From an uncultured Candidatus Saccharibacteria bacterium (GTDB lineage Bacteria; Patescibacteriota; Doudnabacteria; UBA920), in NCBI GenBank assembly GCA_964600695.1, contig CAZRKK010000002.1, forward strand, positions 5,354 through 69,353: a DNA stretch of 64,000 nucleotides. Reading direction: 5' to 3'. Position 1 is the first letter of the stretch. Each line of letters opens with the position of its first letter. Made by a program: the position numbers and the translations under genes. This document shows positions 12,143 to 21,806 of this stretch, piece by piece. The notes beneath the pieces are model-generated. The model did no database searches. It was not told the DNA's origin and saw only the letters and a program-made list of their open reading frames with translations.

Positions 12143-13420
12143 ATGAATAAATTAAGCTTAATTTGGAAAACTAAAGATTTGCGTTGGAAGATCTTCATGG
12201 TCATGATGTTGCTTTTAGTGACTCGTGTTTTGGCTCATGTCCCAATTCCTGGGATTAGCGTCACTGGCTTGAAGGCTTTCTTCGAAAGCAATCAATTTTT
12301 AAACTTATTGAACGTTTTTTCTGGTGGTGGACTAAGTAACTTTTCTATCGCTATGCTTGGTGTTGGACCATACATCACAGCATCTATTATTATGCAGTTG
12401 TTGGTCATGATTGTTCCTTCACTTACAGAACTACAGAAAGAAAGTGGAGAAGCTGGTCGAGTTAAAATCAACCAGTACACTCGTTTTTTGACTTTGCCAT
12501 TAGCAGTTTTGTCTGGTTTCGGAACTATTCGATTATTACAAAGCCAAGGTGGGGCAGAGTTACTTGGAACTTTCTCTCCTTTCCAGTGGTTCCTAACTTT
12601 GTTAACAGTTACCGCTGGTACAATGTTGGTTATGTGGATCGGTGAAATCATTTCCGAATACGGAATTGGTAATGGTGTATCTTTAGTAATTTTCGCCGGT
12701 ATCGTTTCTCAGTTACCTAAGAGCGTTGGTTCGTTGGTTCAGTTATATGATCCAAGCCAATTACCAACCATTATTGGATTTGCTATTGTCGCTTTGATCG
12801 TTATCGCCAGTGTAGTATTTGTGACTGAAGCTCAGCGCAATGTCCCGGTTACGTATGCAAAGCGGGTGAGTGGAGATAAACAAGTTGGTGGAGTTAACTC
12901 ATTCTTACCGTTACGTCTTAACCAAGCAGGTGTTATTCCAATCATCTTCGCAATTTCATTATTGTTGTTCCCAGCGATTATTGCTCAGTTCTTCTTAAAT
13001 GCCAAGACTCCTTTGATTGCTGAATATGCCCAAAAAGCTATTGATTTTACAAATAATCAAGGCGTTTGGTATGGCGTATCTTACTTCCTATTAGTTGTTA
13101 TATTCACTTATTTCTACACTAATATTGTTGTAAATCCAGATGAAGTTTCCGAAAACATGCAACGCAGTGGTGGCTTTGTTCCTGGTATTCGCCCCGGGAA
13201 GCAGACTGCTGATTACTTATACAAAGTTTTGAACCGCATCACTTTGCCTGGATCCTTATTCCTTGGTTTAATCGCTATCCTGCCTTTCATCTTACAAACA
13301 TGGACAGGAACCCGAGCATTAACATTTGGTGGTACTGGATTGCTGATTGTAGTAGCGGTAGTAATTGAAAGTATCAAGCAAGTCGAGGCTCAGCTAACTA
13401 TGCACGACTATCAAAAATAA
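12143..13420 (+). CDS. secY: Preprotein translocase subunit SecY
   Basis: 425 aa, ~10 TM helices, typical SecY profile and position after L15. Confidence 0.95.
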   Translation: MNKLSLIWKTKDLRWKIFMVMMLLLVTRVLAHVPIPGISVTGLKAFFESNQFLNLLNVFSGGGLSNFSIAMLGVGPYITASIIMQLLVMIVPSLTELQKESGEAGRVKINQYTRFLTLPLAVLSGFGTIRLLQSQGGAELLGTFSPFQWFLTLLTVTAGTMLVMWIGEIISEYGIGNGVSLVIFAGIVSQLPKSVGSLVQLYDPSQLPTIIGFAIVALIVIASVVFVTEAQRNVPVTYAKRVSGDKQVGGVNSFLPLRLNQAGVIPIIFAISLLLFPAIIAQFFLNAKTPLIAEYAQKAIDFTNNQGVWYGVSYFLLVVIFTYFYTNIVVNPDEVSENMQRSGGFVPGIRPGKQTADYLYKVLNRITLPGSLFLGLIAILPFILQTWTGTRALTFGGTGLLIVVAVVIESIKQVEAQLTMHDYQK

Positions 13421-13909: not shown

Positions 13910-16468
13910 ATGCCTTTTGGATTTGAACTCAATACTGTAATTTATGCATCACTACTACTAGGAATTTTAGTAGTAGTGTTTTTGCTTGTCGCTGCTTATT
14001 ATATTCACAGGCATTGGTATTACAGTCATGTCATTTTACCCCGCACTAAAGAGTGGGTGTTTTTGGAAATTCAAATGCCAAAAGACAACAGCGAGGATAA
14101 AGAAAAATATCAACGCGATGAAGAAAAAAAATTACTAATTGGTATTGCCGAGCAATTATTCACAACTTTATCAGGAATTAGTCACACTAATTGGTTTTGG
14201 CAACCTAAAGAATATATAAGTTTTGAAATTGCGTGTACAGACAAAAAGATTTCCTTTTATATCAATTGTCCGCGTAAGCTTCAGGAGCTAATAGAAAAAC
14301 AAGTTCAAGCTCAGTACCCTCACGCTTTTATCGAGGAGATTAAAGGCTATAATCCCTTTCCAGAAACTGGGGAGATCGAAGCTACCGAGTTAAGATTGAC
14401 CAAGCCTTATATGTATCCTTTTCGTACTTACAAGAGTATGGAAACAGATCCATTGAATGCGTTAACAAACGCTATGTCAAAACTGAGCGATGGTGATGGG
14501 GCGGTTATTCAAATGATTTTGTATCCAGCAGGGGATCACTGGCAGCATCGTCCGCGGCACATGGCTTTAGAAATTCAGCAAGGTAAAAATCCGAACATTG
14601 TTGCCAAGAGTGCGTTTGGAAGATTTGCGCGCGAGGTAGGAAGCACAGCTAAGGATGGTGTCTTAGGTGGAACTCAGTTAAGTAAAGATCAAATGCAACA
14701 ACGTACCGATTTGTCGGGACGTTATTCGGCCATCAACTTAACTCCGATGCAACAAGACATGGTTAAGCGTTTCGAAGAAAAAGCTAGCCGCCCAGGCTTC
14801 TATACCAACATTCGTATTGTCACAGCATCACCAACTCCTGGAACAGCTAAAGTGAATATGCATAATTTAGTGTCTTCATTTTTGCAGTACAACATGCCGC
14901 CGTTTAATGGTTTTAGAGTTAAGCGTCGTGCTAAGAAGCGTATTATTAAAGATTATATTTTTAGAATTTATCGCCGCTACGGACGTAAGTCTATTTTAAA
15001 TACCGAAGAATTAACTAGTATTTGGCATCTTCCGACTCCATTTTTGGAAACACCTAATATTAAATGGTTGTTATCTAAAAAAGCTCCACCACCTATAAAC
15101 TTGCAACCAGAAGGAATATTACTAGGCCGAAATATATATCGTGGGCAGGAGACACCAATTCATATGGCACGTGATGATCGTCGTCGTCACATGTATATTT
15201 TGGGACGTACTGGTGTGGGTAAAACCGAAATCATGAAATACATGTCCGTTCAAGATATCAAGAACGGTGATGGAATTTGTATTATCGATCCTCATGGTGA
15301 TTTTATTGAAGATGTTTTACCTCACATTCCAAAAGAACGAGCCGAAGATGTAATCTTATTTGACCCATTCGATACCGACAGGCCGATGGGTTTGAACATG
15401 CTCGAAGTCACTAGTGAAGGTCAAAAAGATTTTGCTGTTCAAGAAATGATCTCTATCTTTTATAAATTAGTTACAGATCCTGCGATGCTTGGACCTATGT
15501 TCGAGCACAACATGCGTAATGCCATGCTAACCTTAATGGCTGACGAAGAAAATCCTGGAACTATTGTTGAAGTCCCACGTATATTTACGGACACTGAATT
15601 CCAAAAGTATAAAGTCTCTAAATTAAATGATCCTGTGGTAAGAGCATTTTGGGAGAAAGAAATGGCCAAGACTTCCGATTTTCATAAGTCGGAAATGTTA
15701 GGTTACTTAGTTTCTAAAGTAGGCCGCTTTGTAGAAAATTCCATGATGCGAAATATTGTTGGTCAACCAAAGAGTTCTTTTAACTTCCGTGATATCATGG
15801 ATAACAAAAAAATTCTTTTGGTGAATTTAGCAAAGGGTAAAGTAGGGGAGGTGAACGCAAAATTAATTGGCTTAATTTTAGTGAGTAAAATTCAAATGGC
15901 GGCATTGTCCCGTGCAGATATTCCAGAAAGCGAACGCCAAGATTTCTATTTATATGTTGATGAATTCCAAAACTTTATTACCGATGCTTTTTCTTCTATT
16001 TTGAGCGAAGCCCGTAAGTATCGATTGAATTTGATTATTGGTCATCAGTTCTTAGCTCAGTTGGGGCAAGCAGCTGGTGCGCAAGGTGCAGCTAGTAACG
16101 ATTTACGTGATGCTGTGTTTGGTAATGCTGGTAGTATGGTAACTTTCCGTATTGGTGTAGAAGATAGTGAAGTTATGGCAAAGGAGTTTGCACCAACTTT
16201 TAATGAGTTTGATTTATTAAATGTCGATAGATTTAATGCTTTTGTAAAGTTGATGATTAATGGAACAGCCAGCAAACCATTTAACATGGCCACATACCCC
16301 TTAGCTAAACCAACTGAAGATCAAAAGAAGACAGGGGATGCTATTCGACAGTTATCAAGGTTAAAATTTGGTCGTCCACGGGCCGAAGTTGAAGCAGAAA
16401 TCCTAGAAGCCAGCCAAGTTGCTGATATGATGGCGGCTGGTCCAGGGAGTATCGAGAAAACGGTTTAA
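13910..16468 (+). CDS. Membrane-anchored P-loop ATPase of the VirD4/TraG/TraD type IV coupling-protein family, with a ~380-aa N-terminal domain of unknown function
   Basis: Single N-terminal TM helix; Walker A ILGRTGVGKTE; Walker B LYVDEFQNF; C-terminal ARKYRLNLIIGHQFLAQL resembles the coupling-protein R-x-x-G...Q...QL motif. Confidence 0.6.
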   Translation: MPFGFELNTVIYASLLLGILVVVFLLVAAYYIHRHWYYSHVILPRTKEWVFLEIQMPKDNSEDKEKYQRDEEKKLLIGIAEQLFTTLSGISHTNWFWQPKEYISFEIACTDKKISFYINCPRKLQELIEKQVQAQYPHAFIEEIKGYNPFPETGEIEATELRLTKPYMYPFRTYKSMETDPLNALTNAMSKLSDGDGAVIQMILYPAGDHWQHRPRHMALEIQQGKNPNIVAKSAFGRFAREVGSTAKDGVLGGTQLSKDQMQQRTDLSGRYSAINLTPMQQDMVKRFEEKASRPGFYTNIRIVTASPTPGTAKVNMHNLVSSFLQYNMPPFNGFRVKRRAKKRIIKDYIFRIYRRYGRKSILNTEELTSIWHLPTPFLETPNIKWLLSKKAPPPINLQPEGILLGRNIYRGQETPIHMARDDRRRHMYILGRTGVGKTEIMKYMSVQDIKNGDGICIIDPHGDFIEDVLPHIPKERAEDVILFDPFDTDRPMGLNMLEVTSEGQKDFAVQEMISIFYKLVTDPAMLGPMFEHNMRNAMLTLMADEENPGTIVEVPRIFTDTEFQKYKVSKLNDPVVRAFWEKEMAKTSDFHKSEMLGYLVSKVGRFVENSMMRNIVGQPKSSFNFRDIMDNKKILLVNLAKGKVGEVNAKLIGLILVSKIQMAALSRADIPESERQDFYLYVDEFQNFITDAFSSILSEARKYRLNLIIGHQFLAQLGQAAGAQGAASNDLRDAVFGNAGSMVTFRIGVEDSEVMAKEFAPTFNEFDLLNVDRFNAFVKLMINGTASKPFNMATYPLAKPTEDQKKTGDAIRQLSRLKFGRPRAEVEAEILEASQVADMMAAGPGSIEKTV

Positions 16469-16509
16469 GTAGCTGTAAGCAGCCATAATTAGTAATAAGT
16501 CAGTGGGTA

Positions 16510-16538
16510 TTGACAAAATCAACTATTTGTGATATTAT
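16510..16538 (+). promoter_or_regulatory. Perfect-consensus sigma70 promoter TTGACA-N17-TATTAT
   Basis: TTGACA 16510-16515, 17-nt spacer, TATTAT 16533-16538; GGAGG RBS at 16578-16582. Confidence 0.65.
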
Positions 16539-16593
16539 ATTCGCAGTAGTTTTTTTGTAGTTTAAATCAATTTAGTTGGAGGACTTTGTTAAT

Positions 16594-17064
16594 ATGTATA
16601 AAAACTCGTTGGTCATGAAGATGATCCTAACGTTTGCGGCCTTTAGCGCCGTCGTTGTATTCCTGAACTACGTGGTCGGCATGCCGACTACTAAGCGCAT
16701 GAACTTCGTCTTGATGAGCTATGGTGTTGGTTCGGCCACCATCTTGGCTCTCGCGGCCGTTTTTCCGAGCCGTCTGACATCGGCGCTGTGCCGTCTTGTG
16801 CAGATTGGTTGGGCAGTGGCCATCGTTCTCGGTGGTTTTGCTATGATTATTATCATTGTGGTTGGTTTGGGGCAGTTTAACCTGCCGTTCCTATCGCTAC
16901 AGTGGTATAGCCTGTTCATGGCTTTAGGAATCTTGGGGGCCAGCGTGTTCATGTTTGTCAACGACTCGTATTTTGAAGTCGTTAACGAATATGAAAGCAA
17001 AGCTGGGAAGCCTAAGGTGGTGACACCGCCGGCAAACAGCACTTCGTCGAGCGTTTCGGCATAG
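16594..17064 (+). CDS. GC-rich (compositionally foreign) small 4-TM membrane protein (ATG 16594; ORF track uses TTG at 16576)
   Basis: Four hydrophobic helices; codons strongly G/C-ending (TCG, GCC, CCG, GTC) unlike flanking genes; own promoter and terminator. Confidence 0.6.
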   Translation: MYKNSLVMKMILTFAAFSAVVVFLNYVVGMPTTKRMNFVLMSYGVGSATILALAAVFPSRLTSALCRLVQIGWAVAIVLGGFAMIIIIVVGLGQFNLPFLSLQWYSLFMALGILGASVFMFVNDSYFEVVNEYESKAGKPKVVTPPANSTSSSVSA

Positions 17065-17091
17065 AAACTCCGCACAAGGGTTAGAAGTATT

Positions 17092-17128
17092 GGGTAAGAG
17101 CGAAAATATTCGCTTTTACCCTTTTTTT
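17092..17128 (+). terminator. Intrinsic terminator
   Basis: GGGTAAGAGCGAA-aata-TTCGCTTTTACCC hairpin + T7. Confidence 0.75.
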
Positions 17129-17169
17129 ATTGCCTAAAATTGCCATTTTAAAATTTCTGTTATCAGCTA

Positions 17170-17198
17170 TTGACAAAACATCAAAAATAGTGTATACT
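17170..17198 (+). promoter_or_regulatory. Consensus sigma70 promoter TTGACA-N17-TATACT followed by a ~180-nt structured leader
   Basis: TTGACA 17170-17175, TATACT 17193-17198; 11-bp perfect hairpin at 17234-17277; GGTCA/TGACC palindromes at 17276-17293 and 17331-17346; GGAGG RBS at 17371-17375. Confidence 0.6.
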
Positions 17199-17385
17199 GT
17201 TACTTAAACTAAATATTGGTTAGAAAGTGAATTACCTTCAGAAATTCAGATTTATCGAGATATGGTTTTCTGAAGGTCATGCACGTGTATGACTGTTGTA
17301 GCGCTGTAAATAAAAAAACAGCATTGTAACGGTCAATCACATGACCAAGTTTTCAAAAACAGCCTAAGGAGGGCTAATCAATACT

Positions 17386-18102
17386 ATGCAGAAATTCATT
17401 ATTTCGTTCGTTTTTGTCGCAATGTCACTTATGGCTGTTTCGTCGGCCTCGGCCCAGAATCCGGACTTGAACGTTCCGGTGCCTTCGGGAAAGACGCAGA
17501 CCACGAAGAGCCCGGACTTGAACGTTCCGGTGCCTAACAAGTCGGTTCAAAGTTCGGCTAACGTCTATAGGACGTACCGCAACACTACGGTCGTTAAGAA
17601 GTATTCCATGAACGGCGTCGACAAAGACGCTCGTGAAGTGAATGTCGCTCAGGACATTCGTATAAAAAAACTGGAAGACGGCAAGGCTAACTCGTCGGAC
17701 GTCGAAGCAGGATTTAAGTCGGTTGACGATCGTTTCGCGGCTAAGGATCAGGTGGATGCACGACAGGACCGAGAGCTCGGATATACTTTCTGGGCTTTCA
17801 TAATCATCCCGGTAGTCTTTCTGGTTCTGGCGTTGTTGTACTTCATGTTTGGAGGCAACAATAATAACGTTCAGGTTAACGGTGGTGGACATGCACCGGC
17901 ATACGTACCTCAGGCCCAGCCTGCAGTACAGCCGATACCATACTACCAGCCTATTCCTGCACAACCCGTTCCTGCGGCACAACCGGTTCCTGCAGCCAAC
18001 CAACAGCCAAGCGTAAATGTTCCGATCAATATTGCGGTCGAGCCGATTCAGATCGATCTCCGACCGTCGTTGCGTGGAACACCGCCGGCACCCGCTCAGT
18101 AG
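17386..18102 (+). CDS. GC-rich secreted/single-pass membrane protein with tandem PDLNVPVP repeats and a Pro/Gln-rich tail
   Basis: Signal peptide MQKFIISFVFVAMSLMAVSSASA; exact 24-nt direct repeat at 17461-17484 and 17512-17535; TM FWAFIIIPVVFLVLALLYFMF; tail PAVQPIPYYQPIPAQPVPAAQPVPA. Confidence 0.6.
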   Translation: MQKFIISFVFVAMSLMAVSSASAQNPDLNVPVPSGKTQTTKSPDLNVPVPNKSVQSSANVYRTYRNTTVVKKYSMNGVDKDAREVNVAQDIRIKKLEDGKANSSDVEAGFKSVDDRFAAKDQVDARQDRELGYTFWAFIIIPVVFLVLALLYFMFGGNNNNVQVNGGGHAPAYVPQAQPAVQPIPYYQPIPAQPVPAAQPVPAANQQPSVNVPINIAVEPIQIDLRPSLRGTPPAPAQ

Positions 18103-18109
18103 TGAGCAT

Positions 18110-18150
18110 CTCTCTTACAGAGAGCAAGGTAAAACTTGCTCTCTTTTTTC
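18110..18150 (+). terminator. Intrinsic terminator (two tandem hairpins + T-run)
   Basis: ctctcttacagagag and AGAGCAAG-gtaaaa-CTTGCTCT followed by TTTTTTC. Confidence 0.7.
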
Positions 18151-18212
18151 ATTTTTATAAAAAATAGTGGTATAATTAAAACAACTTTAAATTGTTAATT
18201 CGAAACAAAAAT

Positions 18213-21200
18213 ATGGCTAAAGCCGAAATGGCTCGTCAACCAGATCAAGGTCCAGAACCGGCAATTGACTTGTCGAAAACACTCAAAACCAGTGTAGATG
18301 ATGCTAAAAATAGAGCACGACCACGAGGCCGTGATGTTGATTTTGCTATCCAGCAGAATGATATGCGCGAAGCTAATTTAAGACAGGGTCATCCAGACAT
18401 ATCTGATAAAAAAGAGTTTATTCGACGGGAAAAGGCAAAGAACGAGGCGCGTAGTAAGTCTAAATCTGAAAAGGGACCTAAAAAGAATGAAGTAATTCTT
18501 CAACCTATAGCTCCGGCAGAAAAATTAAAAGCTGTAGTTAACCAAGAAAAAGCCGCGCAGAAACAAAAACCAGAGCAAAAGCCGGAAACACAGCCAGAAC
18601 AAAAGATAGCTCAACAAGAACAAAAAGCAGCCCAAGAAACCAGTAAAGTTGTAGAAAGTGTAGTTCAGGAAAGCACTAAAGAGATGTCCGCAGAAGTGGA
18701 CAAGGCACTTGCCGTACATGCAATTAGTCCAGAACATGCTCAGCAAGCCAAAGCAGTTATAAACAATGAACAGGTAAAGCAAGGAGTTTTTTCTAGAGCT
18801 TTTGGTGCTATAAAAGACAAAGCAGTGGGTGTTAAAGAGTGGTTTGCAGATAGTCCTAGGTTAACTTCACTTTTGGTTGGTGCGGGTACTGGTATGGGTG
18901 TTCGTTACGCTGTTAAGGCTGGGTTTATTGCTGCATTTGGAGCAAACTTACCTTGGTTGGTTGCCGCAGGTGCCACTGCAGGTGGTTTACTAGAAGGTGG
19001 GCGTTCATTTTGGCGTGAATCAAAATCCTATCAATCTAAAGAGATTATGGATCGGTTCAGAAGCGCGGATTATCTAGAAAAGGCAGCCATGCTTTCTAAG
19101 CTTGAGGAAGCATACAAAACCCAAAGATTTGATGCGTCTCCAGAAGGTTACCAAGAAATTGGTACAGCTTTGGCTCATGCTCGAACAGAAATGCAACTTG
19201 AATTAGACAAAAAGGATGGCAAGTTTGCTAATCATTCCGATCGAGATAAAATTCAATATATTTTAAATTTATCACAAGGTATTAAGGGTGAAATTCATAA
19301 AGATAATCGTGGTAAGGAAGCCAGAAAGCTTATTCGTGACATCGAAAAGAGCTTAGAGTACAAGCGTGATTTTAAAGGTGTCTTACAGAACAAAAAGATG
19401 GTAGTTGCCAAGGCAGCTCTTAAAGGTGCAGCTTATGGTGGGCTGGGTTCATTAATCGGTGGGGCAGTATCACACTATTTCTTCGAAAGTGGAACAACTC
19501 AAACTGTCAGCCATGTTGTCGAGAACAGACCTACTGTGGCAGATCATTTTACAAAACATTTAGATCATCGAGGTTTAACCGGTGGTGCTCGTGATTCATT
19601 GCATGATTTGATAGAAGAACAAAGAGGTATTGATCCTAATTTTGCCGAAGGAGTCACTGTAGAGCAACTAGTTTATGCAGAAGACACTCTCGCTAAAGAG
19701 GCTATTAAAAATGGCGTTAAGTCTGGCGTTTCGGAGCATACTTGGACTCATGATGAGTTGATGCGAGCCTTAGAAAAATCTGGAGCGGTTGGAGATAGTT
19801 CTACGCTTACTGAAGCAGGAGAAAGGAATATCGGACGATTGATTTCGCATCGACCTCATTTCTTGTCCGAAGCTACCAAAGAGAAAATGCTTGATTTTAC
19901 ACCTAAAGATTTTAATGTAGTTGTTGAGCAAATTACTTCTCAACCAGAAAATATCGTTCTCTCAAACGAAGATTATGCAGCTATTATTGGTGCACTAACC
20001 CTAGTAGCGGCTTCAGAAGTGGCTAGTGCCGCCGACAGAAGAATCGCTAAGAATCGGCTTGAACAAATGCAAGCGAATCCTCCAACTGGCCAGCCAGGGG
20101 ATGGTGTAGAAACAGCTCCAGCTAATAATGTTGTATGGCCTACAGAAGGTGTTCTTACTGCAGAAGAAGCACGTGTGGATAATAGAAAATTCCCTAATGG
20201 CCCACCACCGTCACCATTTGATGGTAATGTAGAAACTACTCCTACACCTAAACCAGAGGGTAGTCCTTTTGATGACGAAAAAAAGCAAAATGCAGAGTCG
20301 ACTACTAATAAAGCAGGTAAGGTTGAGGAAATTGACGAAGATGTTGAAGCTCAAGTGGATGTACAAGATTTGCCTGGTGTAGAAAAAATCAAAGACTCGG
20401 AAGTTACTCCCGATGCAATTAATCGAAAACTGAAGAGTGCAAAAGTTAATGCAGAAGTAGTACCATGGCCTTTAGAAAAGATTACCAACAAACAGAAAGG
20501 ACAAATTAACAGATTAACTGATTTATATATTTCTTCGGCACGCAAGTTAAACGCCTTAAATATTACAAATAAGGTTGTCTTGAATTTTTATCCAACAGGT
20601 TCAAGAGAGTTAGATTTTACAGATTCTGAATTTACCGCTGGTATTCCTCTTAGTGATAAAACTTATAATAAAAAGAGCTTCGAGAGCTTAGTAGATAGGA
20701 TGATTGAAACTAAGATTTCCGAAAAGTTTGCTGAAATACAAAATAACTATGCATTTCAAACAGAGATGCCTGTCATAGGAAATTCAGAGGATGATCAAGC
20801 TGTTGAACAGTATAAAGCTTTAGATAAATTCCAGCGAAACATGGAAGCAATCGACGCAAAAGAATTAAAACGACTAACTTCTGGACTTAAGAAAGTTACA
20901 ATTGGTGACTATTCATTTATAGGTACTGATGAGGTGGTTCTACCAATGTTTATTAGAGACAACAGGGGTTATCATTATAAATCTTTCAAGCCTAACCAAT
21001 TAAAGGGTATGTTGAAAGAGTATTCCAAAGATCGGTTTGCGTTAAAGCCGATGGATTTAAAAGAGCAGAATGATAAATATCCAAATATTGGAGCAGATAA
21101 AAACTTTTACGATAATATCGAGGAAGCTGAGAGGATAAAAGCAGAAGAATTAGTATACAGTGTTATTGAAAATGAATTCAAAGATGGTTTTCCACCAAAC

Positions 21201-21806
21201 GTAAAGGTATTGTTTTCGGATAGATTCCAGTCAAAGCCAGGTGTCTTATACCTCGACATGTCAAAGTTTGACCAAGCATATATTAGTCGTCAGCTTCACC
21301 AAGGATTGCGTCGTTCTGCGCCAGATCGTTTACAGCGCACTCCTGGTCCTGTTAAAGAGCGTTTAAAGCGGGTTTCTCCTGATTATGGGAATAAAAAGTC
21401 TGACCAAGACAAAGCCATTGAAGCAGCTGTTGATAGAATAATTCGACCCGAAGATTGGGAGAAAAAAGAAACTGGGCCAGCTAATTTAAACCATATTGAA
21501 GAACAGAACGGAGAAGATGAGCTCTATAGTTTACTTGGAGACATAGATAAGAAATATCCAGGGTCTATCTCCGAAAGCATGCAAAAAAAGATCTCTAGTT
21601 ACTTAAAAGACAATAATTTATCAGCAGAGGATTTACTAACCGCCGATAAATTACCTAAAATTACGAGTGTTCTTCCTAAAAAACTTGAGCAGTACATAGC
21701 CGAAGAGTCGTTTGCTAAACTAGAAAAACTGGCAATGGCCGACGAGGATTATACTGACGAAGGCATTAGATTAAAAAATCAGTTAGAAGAATTCATCAAA
21801 AAATAA
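18213..21806 (+). CDS. Giant hypothetical protein (~1197 aa): K/Q/E-rich disordered N-terminus, Gly-zipper hydrophobic hairpin, large C-terminal region without recognised catalytic motif
   Basis: Continuous 3.6-kb ORF; promoter atagTGgTATAAT at 18166-18176; hydrophobic LTSLLVGAGTGMGVRYAVKAGFIAAFGANLPWLVAAGATAGGLL; start ATG 18213 (ORF track 18192 is TTG). Confidence 0.6.
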   Translation: MAKAEMARQPDQGPEPAIDLSKTLKTSVDDAKNRARPRGRDVDFAIQQNDMREANLRQGHPDISDKKEFIRREKAKNEARSKSKSEKGPKKNEVILQPIAPAEKLKAVVNQEKAAQKQKPEQKPETQPEQKIAQQEQKAAQETSKVVESVVQESTKEMSAEVDKALAVHAISPEHAQQAKAVINNEQVKQGVFSRAFGAIKDKAVGVKEWFADSPRLTSLLVGAGTGMGVRYAVKAGFIAAFGANLPWLVAAGATAGGLLEGGRSFWRESKSYQSKEIMDRFRSADYLEKAAMLSKLEEAYKTQRFDASPEGYQEIGTALAHARTEMQLELDKKDGKFANHSDRDKIQYILNLSQGIKGEIHKDNRGKEARKLIRDIEKSLEYKRDFKGVLQNKKMVVAKAALKGAAYGGLGSLIGGAVSHYFFESGTTQTVSHVVENRPTVADHFTKHLDHRGLTGGARDSLHDLIEEQRGIDPNFAEGVTVEQLVYAEDTLAKEAIKNGVKSGVSEHTWTHDELMRALEKSGAVGDSSTLTEAGERNIGRLISHRPHFLSEATKEKMLDFTPKDFNVVVEQITSQPENIVLSNEDYAAIIGALTLVAASEVASAADRRIAKNRLEQMQANPPTGQPGDGVETAPANNVVWPTEGVLTAEEARVDNRKFPNGPPPSPFDGNVETTPTPKPEGSPFDDEKKQNAESTTNKAGKVEEIDEDVEAQVDVQDLPGVEKIKDSEVTPDAINRKLKSAKVNAEVVPWPLEKITNKQKGQINRLTDLYISSARKLNALNITNKVVLNFYPTGSRELDFTDSEFTAGIPLSDKTYNKKSFESLVDRMIETKISEKFAEIQNNYAFQTEMPVIGNSEDDQAVEQYKALDKFQRNMEAIDAKELKRLTSGLKKVTIGDYSFIGTDEVVLPMFIRDNRGYHYKSFKPNQLKGMLKEYSKDRFALKPMDLKEQNDKYPNIGADKNFYDNIEEAERIKAEELVYSVIENEFKDGFPPNVKVLFSDRFQSKPGVLYLDMSKFDQAYISRQLHQGLRRSAPDRLQRTPGPVKERLKRVSPDYGNKKSDQDKAIEAAVDRIIRPEDWEKKETGPANLNHIEEQNGEDELYSLLGDIDKKYPGSISESMQKKISSYLKDNNLSAEDLLTADKLPKITSVLPKKLEQYIAEESFAKLEKLAMADEDYTDEGIRLKNQLEEFIKK

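Follow-up and report, generated by a model that had tools for sequence, protein, structure and literature searches.

Comparison with homologous loci shows that positions 17227-17346 (~120 nucleotides, nt) of the 64,000-nt stretch of Patescibacteria DNA analysed here (the window, to whose positions all coordinates refer) specify what is predicted to be a conserved three-helix RNA domain, located in the untranslated leader of a gene for a 238-amino-acid (aa) protein. This protein carries a signal peptide, two PDLNVPVP repeats, a TTVVKKYxMNGxDxxAR motif, one transmembrane helix and a Pro/Gln-rich tail, and matches no Pfam, NCBIfam or PADLOC family. We regard the leader domain as a new candidate structured RNA motif. 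It belongs to a familiar kind, the 5′ untranslated region (5′-UTR) elements, and has a narrow distribution. Our favoured reading, to which we give about even chances, is that it is a factor-recognised cis-regulatory leader of the mRNA for this exported, membrane-anchored protein.

Folded as RNA, the leader reaches -55.3 kcal/mol, with z = -5.8 on the + strand compared to z = -2.9 on the - strand. The first helix, P1, is an extended inverted repeat (17227-17251 / 17260-17284) that ranks first among the local inverted repeats of the window and folds alone at -20.0 kcal/mol (z -4.2), and the third, P3, reaches -22.2 kcal/mol alone (z -5.1). P1 contains the perfect stem of 11 base pairs (bp) that an earlier note on this DNA had located correctly, ACCTTCAGAAA (17234-17244) with TTTCTGAAGGT (17267-17277) around a 22-nt loop. 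An invariant internal loop, AAUU / UCAUG, separates this stem from the GUG/CAC pairing. Across loci, P1 runs in the order GUGAAUUW, a hairpin with an invariant CCU/AGG base and a covarying body, then UCAUGCAC; L140-L142 (L-numbers designate the fetched homologous loci) carry an apical insertion of ~24 nt, seen as 24 extra alignment columns. A single perfect 11-bp hairpin is unremarkable in 64 kb, and its significance comes from conservation. P2 takes the general form GGUCAU(G) / (C/U)AUGACC. P3 takes the form (U)GACYGUUG... / ...RACGGUC(A); the base of its helix is conserved and, distal to it, L002, L135 and L006 have a 6-nt loop and the other loci an imperfect helix of up to ~45 nt.

The GGTCA/TGACC ‘palindromes’ to which the earlier note drew attention are, in this predicted fold, the 5′ and 3′ strands of the nested helices P2 and P3. 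The second palindrome, GGTCAatcacaTGACC at 17331-17346, is present as described. The near-palindrome GTCATGCACGTGTATGAC at 17276-17293 is also present, but its CACGTG centre occurs only in the window and in L143, and is replaced in the other homologues by CACGAG, CATGAG, CACAAG or CACTGC. Both UCAUG and the GG at the P1 base can be taken up by either P1 or P2, so that the two helices compete; when folding was constrained to extended P1 or to P2 in 10 homologues, the two energies differed by only 0.1-5.5 kcal/mol in every case. Some minimum-energy folds also pair the 5′ tail of the leader with the 3′ UGACC or with AAUUU, in a register that is inconsistent across lineages.

Eighty loci were fetched via a VirD4-like type IV coupling protein, whose gene lies ~760 bp upstream of the leader element. 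Three of them (L002, L015, L006) hold a module made of a 162-aa gene, the leader, the 238-aa gene and a 1204-aa gene. A homologue search with the 1204-aa protein added nine loci that include the leader region, and a profile search with the 238-aa family two further ones (L143, L144), fetched without reference to the RNA. In this blind test both were found to contain the element, with 97.8 and 113.2 bits using the previously built RNA model. The 12 distinct sequences fall into ~6 lineages (window, L132, L144 and L134; L143; L002; L135; L015 and L137; L140, L141 and L142). L006 is an additional divergent variant outside these 12: it keeps a hairpin at the P1 position, unrelated in sequence, and scores only 18 bits with the covariance model (filters off). 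The element was always found 5′ of the same 238-aa protein family, at ~13 loci, all from a single Patescibacteria clade. L141 and L142 have another upstream gene, on the opposite strand, and still keep promoter, leader and 238-aa gene together; L003 and L004 have the coupling protein and not the element.

The folding and covariance check suggested by the earlier note came out in favour of structure: the fold is kept in 12 distinct homologous leaders, with compensating changes. In a MAFFT alignment of 10 cores (A5), 94.7% of cells are paired, compared to 32-46% when the partners are slid by 1-3 columns, and 11 pairs are changed on both sides, 8 of these among the 14 pairs of P1. A model-based alignment of 12 sequences (A8), which is fitted to the model and so biased towards structure, gives 94.4% of paired cells compared to 29-45% for slid partners, with 11 pairs and 34 cells changed on both sides; values of this size were reached by 0-4 of 500 shuffles. 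Across the 12 sequences, too, P1 has such changes in 8 of its 14 stem pairs. RNAalifold applied to full-length leaders recovered P1 (with GUG/CAC) and P3 independently, with 12 compensated pairs, and z on the + strand lies between -2.7 and -7.2 in all 12 leaders tested. P3 includes four conserved G·U pairs (GU in 9/12, UG in 8/12, GU in 6/12 and GU in 9/12), which fit only the + strand as single-stranded nucleic acid, as they become A·C mismatches on the other strand. It also tolerates insertions, which are themselves self-complementary. For P2, the decamer GGUCAUGCAC is invariant in 11 of the 12 sequences; the sole change, G to A in L144, stands opposite U, so that the seventh pair forms the series G-C, G·U, A-U. 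Likewise, the only change in the CAC of GUG/CAC is CAU in L132, where a G·U pair is kept.

Five blocks of the domain are essentially invariant: GUGAAUU, AGGUCAUGCAC, GACYGUUG, ACGGUC and UGACC. Between the window and L002, L135, L015, L137 and L140-L142 the RNA core is 69-81% identical, with the blocks at 100%. At the same loci the 162-aa and 238-aa proteins are 28-40% identical (50% for the 162-aa protein in L140) and the 1204-aa protein 40-44%. The leader thus reads as an island of constraint in a fast-evolving region. Features of an aptamer-like domain are found in it, namely a conserved fold, covarying helices and the invariant bases GUGAAUU, AGGUCAUGCAC, GACYGUUG and ACGGUC.

Table 1. Features of the leader, of its transcription unit and of the neighbouring genes (window positions)
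Feature	Position	Strand	Description
Promoter	17170..17198	+	TTGACA 17170-17175, 17-nt spacer, TATACT 17193-17198; 11/12 consensus positions match
5′ tail, predicted single-stranded	17204..17226	+	Conserved AAACTAAATAT at 17206-17216
P1 domain	17227..17284	+	GUG 17227-29 with CAC 17282-84; 11-bp stem 17234-44 / 17267-77; variable apical part 17245-66
P2, 5′ strand GGUCAUG	17275..17281	+	Pairs with 17340-46; GGU common to P1 base
P3 hairpin	17290..17335	+	UGACUGUUGUAG with UUGUAACGGUCA; inner helix GCUGU/ACAGC; enclosed by P2
P2, 3′ strand CAUGACC	17340..17346	+	Seventh pair G-C, G·U or A-U by lineage
Linker and ribosome-binding site	17347..17385	+	A/U-rich linker UUUUCAAAAA; Shine-Dalgarno AAGGAGG 17366-17372; spacer to ATG 17386
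238-aa protein gene	17386-18102	+	Under the leader
Terminator	18119..18150	+	Closes the unit after the 238-aa gene
SecY gene	12143-13420		Pfam match; last gene of putative ribosomal-protein operon
131-aa open reading frame	Between SecY and coupling-protein genes		
VirD4-like type IV coupling-protein gene	13910-16468		Coupling-protein island directly after SecY gene
162-aa membrane protein gene	16576-17064		Followed by own terminator 17092-17128
Intrinsic terminator of 162-aa gene	17092..17128	+	13-bp stem then T-run; upstream boundary of the leader’s unit
1204-aa protein gene	After terminator 18119-18150		Own promoter (TATAAT 18172-77), leader ~35 nt
Genes of 104 aa and 215 aa, then GtrA-family protein	3′ of 1204-aa gene		

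The promoter, of the sigma-70 consensus type, is near-invariant as a 29-mer in all 13 homologous loci, with the form TTGACAAAA...AAAAATAGTGTATACT, and no other promoter-like site was found within 17199-17385. Judging from this promoter, transcription would start at ~17204-17206. The earlier note had called a leader of ~180 nt unusually long, and rightly: with the start so placed it measures ~181 nt, compared to 23-49 nt behind the other promoter-like sites preceding open reading frames (ORFs) in the window, and is 4-8 times longer. Other genes of the clade share the promoter consensus but have short leaders. The bases just after the -10 box are variable (a discriminator of ~7 nt), and the conserved tail UCAAAYUAAAUAU starts beyond them. 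At the other end, the domain is followed by an A/U-rich linker (UUUCAAA) whose length is ~15-45 nt across loci, then by the Shine-Dalgarno sequence and the AUG. Since terminators flank the 238-aa gene and the next gene has its own promoter, we regard promoter, leader, 238-aa gene and terminator as a single-gene unit; an equivalent terminator is found ahead of the promoter in the homologues too. A likeness of the promoter to the oriT of pMV158 was set aside as coincidence, as the same consensus precedes many unrelated genes.

What favours recognition by a specific trans-acting factor is the pattern of constraint, with junction and internal-loop bases that do not vary, flanked by stems that covary freely and differ in length. 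The domain would be the recognition site of this factor, which would read the junction and internal-loop bases GUGAAUU, AGGUCAUGCAC, GACYGUUG, ACGGUC and UGACC, and would act in cis after transcription, on translation or on mRNA lifetime. A protein is a likelier factor than a metabolite because the element is tied to one gene family in one narrow clade and has no aptamer-coupled platform. Ribosomal-protein leaders are protein-binding autoregulatory mRNA leaders, and the domain resembles them in its irregular helices, its conserved internal-loop bases and its narrow to moderate range; they too exert translational control without a terminator, as proposed here. Unlike in these leaders, the gene here encodes a membrane or exported protein that is not a known RNA binder, and no mimicry of a known RNA target was seen.

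A switch could be part of such regulation. The GG of AGGUCAUG is common to the base of P1 and to P2, so that the two helices compete, and formation of P2 would take this GG from the P1 base and free the invariant UUWCCU, whose bases are complementary to AGGAGG of the Shine-Dalgarno sequence. This UUWCCU/AGGAGG pairing is visible in several P2-constrained folds. In its boldest form the proposal would be a new class of signal-responsive RNA switch specific to Patescibacteria, either a riboswitch or a dedicated protein-RNA switch, in which a change between P1 and P2 would make the ribosome-binding site (RBS) of a fast-evolving surface protein accessible or inaccessible. As this protein is encoded in the hypervariable island beside the gene of the VirD4-like coupling protein, the switch would regulate the host-interaction machinery of these epibionts; we consider this whole proposal rather unlikely.

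Several observations weigh against the factor-recognised leader. The 12 sequences amount to only ~6 independent lineages, all of one narrow clade, and the A8 alignment has the bias noted above. P2 and GUG/CAC are near-invariant, and their support consists of conservation and a single compensating change. The transcription start is taken from the promoter alone. The CCU/AGG complementarity is too short for significance, and predictions leave the Shine-Dalgarno sequence mostly unpaired (0.5-0.8 in 10/12). No expression platform was found, and there is no terminator-like site on the + strand in 17199-17385; P2 is followed only by AAGUUUUC, with no terminator U-run, and an intrinsic terminator or attenuator was rejected on the same grounds. 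A variable, A/U-rich linker stands between domain and RBS. A scan of 1.15 Mb of related DNA with the model gave no second copy. Finally, the distant relatives L010, L016, L018 and L035 carry this promoter and 5′ tail ahead of other genes, with long, unrelated hairpin leaders in between, which favours a generic stabilising or insulating role.

Such a role defines the first rival, a passive structural leader whose hairpins would protect the mRNA of a highly expressed surface protein from 5′ decay, or insulate its RBS, without any sensing. It is possible, though we find it less probable than not. The consensus promoter, the strong Shine-Dalgarno sequence and the single-gene unit for an exported protein would all suit it, as would the predicted accessibility of the Shine-Dalgarno sequence, the unstructured linker that parts the structured domain from the RBS, the free variation of distal P1 and P3, and the unrelated long hairpins that relatives put behind the same promoter and tail. 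The closest known cases are 5′-UTRs that stabilise the mRNAs of abundant envelope proteins, for example that of ompA in E. coli and those of S-layer genes, e.g. slpA of Lactobacillus. Like the present leader, these are 130-200 nt long, contain two stable hairpins as well as an A/U-rich single-stranded stretch and a strong RBS, and stand before a gene for an exported or envelope protein that forms a unit by itself. They differ in having the hairpin at the 5′ terminus and little sequence constraint, whereas here ~20 unpaired 5′ bases are predicted and the junction is invariant. Known 5′-UTR stabilisers need this terminal hairpin, and with the start at ~17204 the predicted unpaired bases stand ahead of P1 at the 5′ end, although pairing of the tail with the 3′ UGACC is possible in some homologues. 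Above all, a stabiliser needs structure and not sequence, yet the five blocks GUGAAUU, AGGUCAUGCAC, GACYGUUG, ACGGUC and UGACC are essentially invariant beside proteins whose identity drops to ~30%. The leaders of the distant relatives measure 126-253 nt (L010 7266-7548, L016 10002-10157, L018 8638-8795, L035 9860-10033), with the tail UCAAAWUAAAUA, and leaders with long hairpins may be in general use in this clade.

The earlier note had also raised a riboswitch. The conserved aptamer-like fold fits this part of its proposal; the missing Rfam match and terminator, the inconsistent masking of the Shine-Dalgarno sequence and the single gene family do not. In the form of a new class sensing a metabolite or an ion, a riboswitch is unlikely, even though the domain has several helices with covarying, length-variable stems, invariant junction bases and near-isoenergetic alternative pairings, and is absent from Rfam. 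The one associated gene family has no metabolic or transport signature, and riboswitches would be expected in several contexts; the clade is very narrow, with one copy per locus, and neither a terminator nor an aptamer-adjacent masking of the Shine-Dalgarno sequence was seen. A useful comparison is with the candidate cis-regulatory RNA motifs that comparative genomics has yielded, including orphan riboswitch candidates; Weinberg et al. 2017 (PMC5737381), for example, contributed 224 motifs, which are now in Rfam. Like them, the element is a multi-helix 5′-UTR domain with covarying, length-variable stems and invariant junction bases. Unlike them, it matches no Rfam 15 model in the window or in six homologous loci, is confined to ~13 loci of one clade, is tied to a single gene family and has no recognisable expression platform.

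The search of RNA catalogues suggested by the earlier note was negative throughout. At gathering threshold, Rfam 15 gave no match in the 64-kb window or in 79 kb of the six homologous loci, and at E up to 10 it gave only chance matches to microRNA, snoRNA and small-RNA models, at 10-21 bits compared to cut-offs of 40-160. The covariance model R1, run over 93 sources (1.15 Mb, including the 80 coupling-protein loci), found no copy beyond the syntenic ones. A metagenome scan for the promoter and 5′-tail pattern returned 14 stretches, of which the sole real one, L089, duplicates L015, and scans of viral contigs with the DNA pattern and with the 1204-aa protein gave chance matches or none.

A further reading of the same bases takes them as DNA: the GGTCA/TGACC half-sites, which the earlier note had likened to the operator of a dimeric transcription factor, would be bound by such a factor that blocks transcription. 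We hold this to be very unlikely. GGTCA and TGACC are indeed kept in sequence and not just in pairing, the first pair is spaced by 9-11 bp in 12 loci, and the repeated, conserved inverted pentamers are what palindromic operators also show. However, the spacing of the first pair is 6 in L006 and that of the second is 3-6 bp, and the P3 arms lie 6 to ~45 nt apart with self-complementary sequences inserted between them, unlike in operators. TGCAC is invariant on one side only, so that the flanks are asymmetric, and the CACGTG core is not conserved. The sites would lie ~70-140 nt downstream of the predicted start, and operators do not explain the conserved G·U pairs. The search for further GGTCA-N6-TGACC sites that the earlier note had advised found none in the window beyond the single exact match here; with one mismatch allowed there are three, compared to 0.8 expected.

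Three remaining ideas are, even when taken together, very unlikely: an RNA thermometer, a separate or processed small RNA, and a single-stranded DNA structure tied to the type IV coupling-protein gene. With RNA thermometers (ROSE, fourU) the leader shares a structured 5′-UTR and a small hairpin touching the Shine-Dalgarno sequence (AGCCU 17361-65 / GGGCU 17371-75), which is weak (-6 kcal/mol) and leaves GGAG in its loop. It differs from them in that its large conserved helices exclude the Shine-Dalgarno sequence and the AUG and, with P1 at -20 and P3 at -22 kcal/mol, are far too stable for physiological melting. The cis-regulatory RNA put forward in the earlier note fits the conserved structure between conserved promoter and RBS, and its thermosensor variant is unlikely, as the 11-bp stem excludes the RBS. 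The mini-hairpin is not leader-specific either, since similar ones surround GGAGG at 5 of 6 control genes in the window, and it was dropped as a specific regulatory feature. An independent small RNA would lack a terminator after the domain. As to single-stranded DNA, the neighbouring coupling-protein gene speaks for it and G·T pairs are tolerated there too, but no relaxase was seen in the locus and, as L003 and L004 illustrate, it is the promoter and the 238-aa gene that accompany the element from locus to locus, and not the coupling-protein gene.

Some minor observations concern the RBS and the start of the gene. The flanks of the RBSs at positions 684, 1517, 16594, 31489 and 61002 can close a small hairpin with GGAG in or beside the loop; such RBS mini-hairpins could be common to the whole genome, or an artefact that arises when short A/U-rich segments are folded. 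On the - strand, 17360-17376 reads as the reverse complement of the leader’s mini-hairpin followed by GTTTTTGAAAA, a weak terminator-like site, with no - strand gene nearby. The 10-mer CAGAAATTCA of the P1 5′ arm (17239-17248) recurs exactly at 17389-17398, in codons 2-5 of the gene, so that the P1 3′ arm could pair with the start region; the repeat is probably due to chance, because the close relative L132 is without it. A leader peptide or upstream ORF starting at the invariant AUG 17279 (12-20 or more codons) was rejected because its frame is not conserved: it is broken by a 1-nt deletion in L015 and L137 and by an insertion in L141, with the nucleotide blocks kept.

To our knowledge, very few cis-regulatory RNAs are known in Patescibacteria (Candidate Phyla Radiation, CPR), where gene regulation is almost unstudied. 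Here a strongly conserved RNA island stands amid very fast-evolving proteins, beside a type IV coupling-protein gene. Should the RNA indeed control the exported protein, it would offer a route to how ultra-small bacteria tune their surface or host-contact proteins; should it merely stabilise the mRNA, it would be ordinary. In either case this compact three-helix RNA is directly testable.

The window belongs to a Patescibacteria (CPR) genome with a G+C content of ~38%, whose + strand carries nearly all genes; related metagenome-assembled genomes bear the labels Ca. Doudnabacteria, Ca. Saccharibacteria or “Patescibacteria group”. GC skew is above 0 in every 2-kb bin of 1-64000 and the long ORFs are nearly all on the + strand, an indication that the entire window belongs to a single replication arm. 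The ORFs ahead of the SecY gene look like a ribosomal-protein operon, judged by position and size alone. The segment 16001-18000, which spans the 162-aa and 238-aa genes and the leader, has a G+C fraction of 0.447 compared to 0.35-0.41 elsewhere in the window. No informative family or structure match was obtained for the neighbouring proteins in Pfam, NCBIfam, PADLOC or PDB sequences.

VirD4-like coupling-protein genes are reported to be widespread in Patescibacteria, mostly away from virB4 and without a relaxase, and may serve other uses (PMC12102498). Between our loci the coupling protein is 82-100% identical, compared to 28-50% for the 162-aa, 238-aa and 1204-aa proteins encoded after it (window 16470-21806 and L002, L015, L135, L137, L140-L142). 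In L003 and L004, whose coupling protein is 88-92% identical, unrelated genes (~100 aa and ~1500 aa) replace the module, so that the region 3′ of the coupling-protein gene is a hypervariable island. In the closest metagenome-assembled genome, contig L001 (CAYQJW010000052.1) stops exactly at the end of the coupling-protein gene, and L133 (CAYQJW010000003.1), a contig of the same assembly, begins 143 nt ahead of the 1204-aa gene. The assembly break therefore spans the 162-aa gene, the leader and the 238-aa gene, as is expected from strain-level variability at this place.

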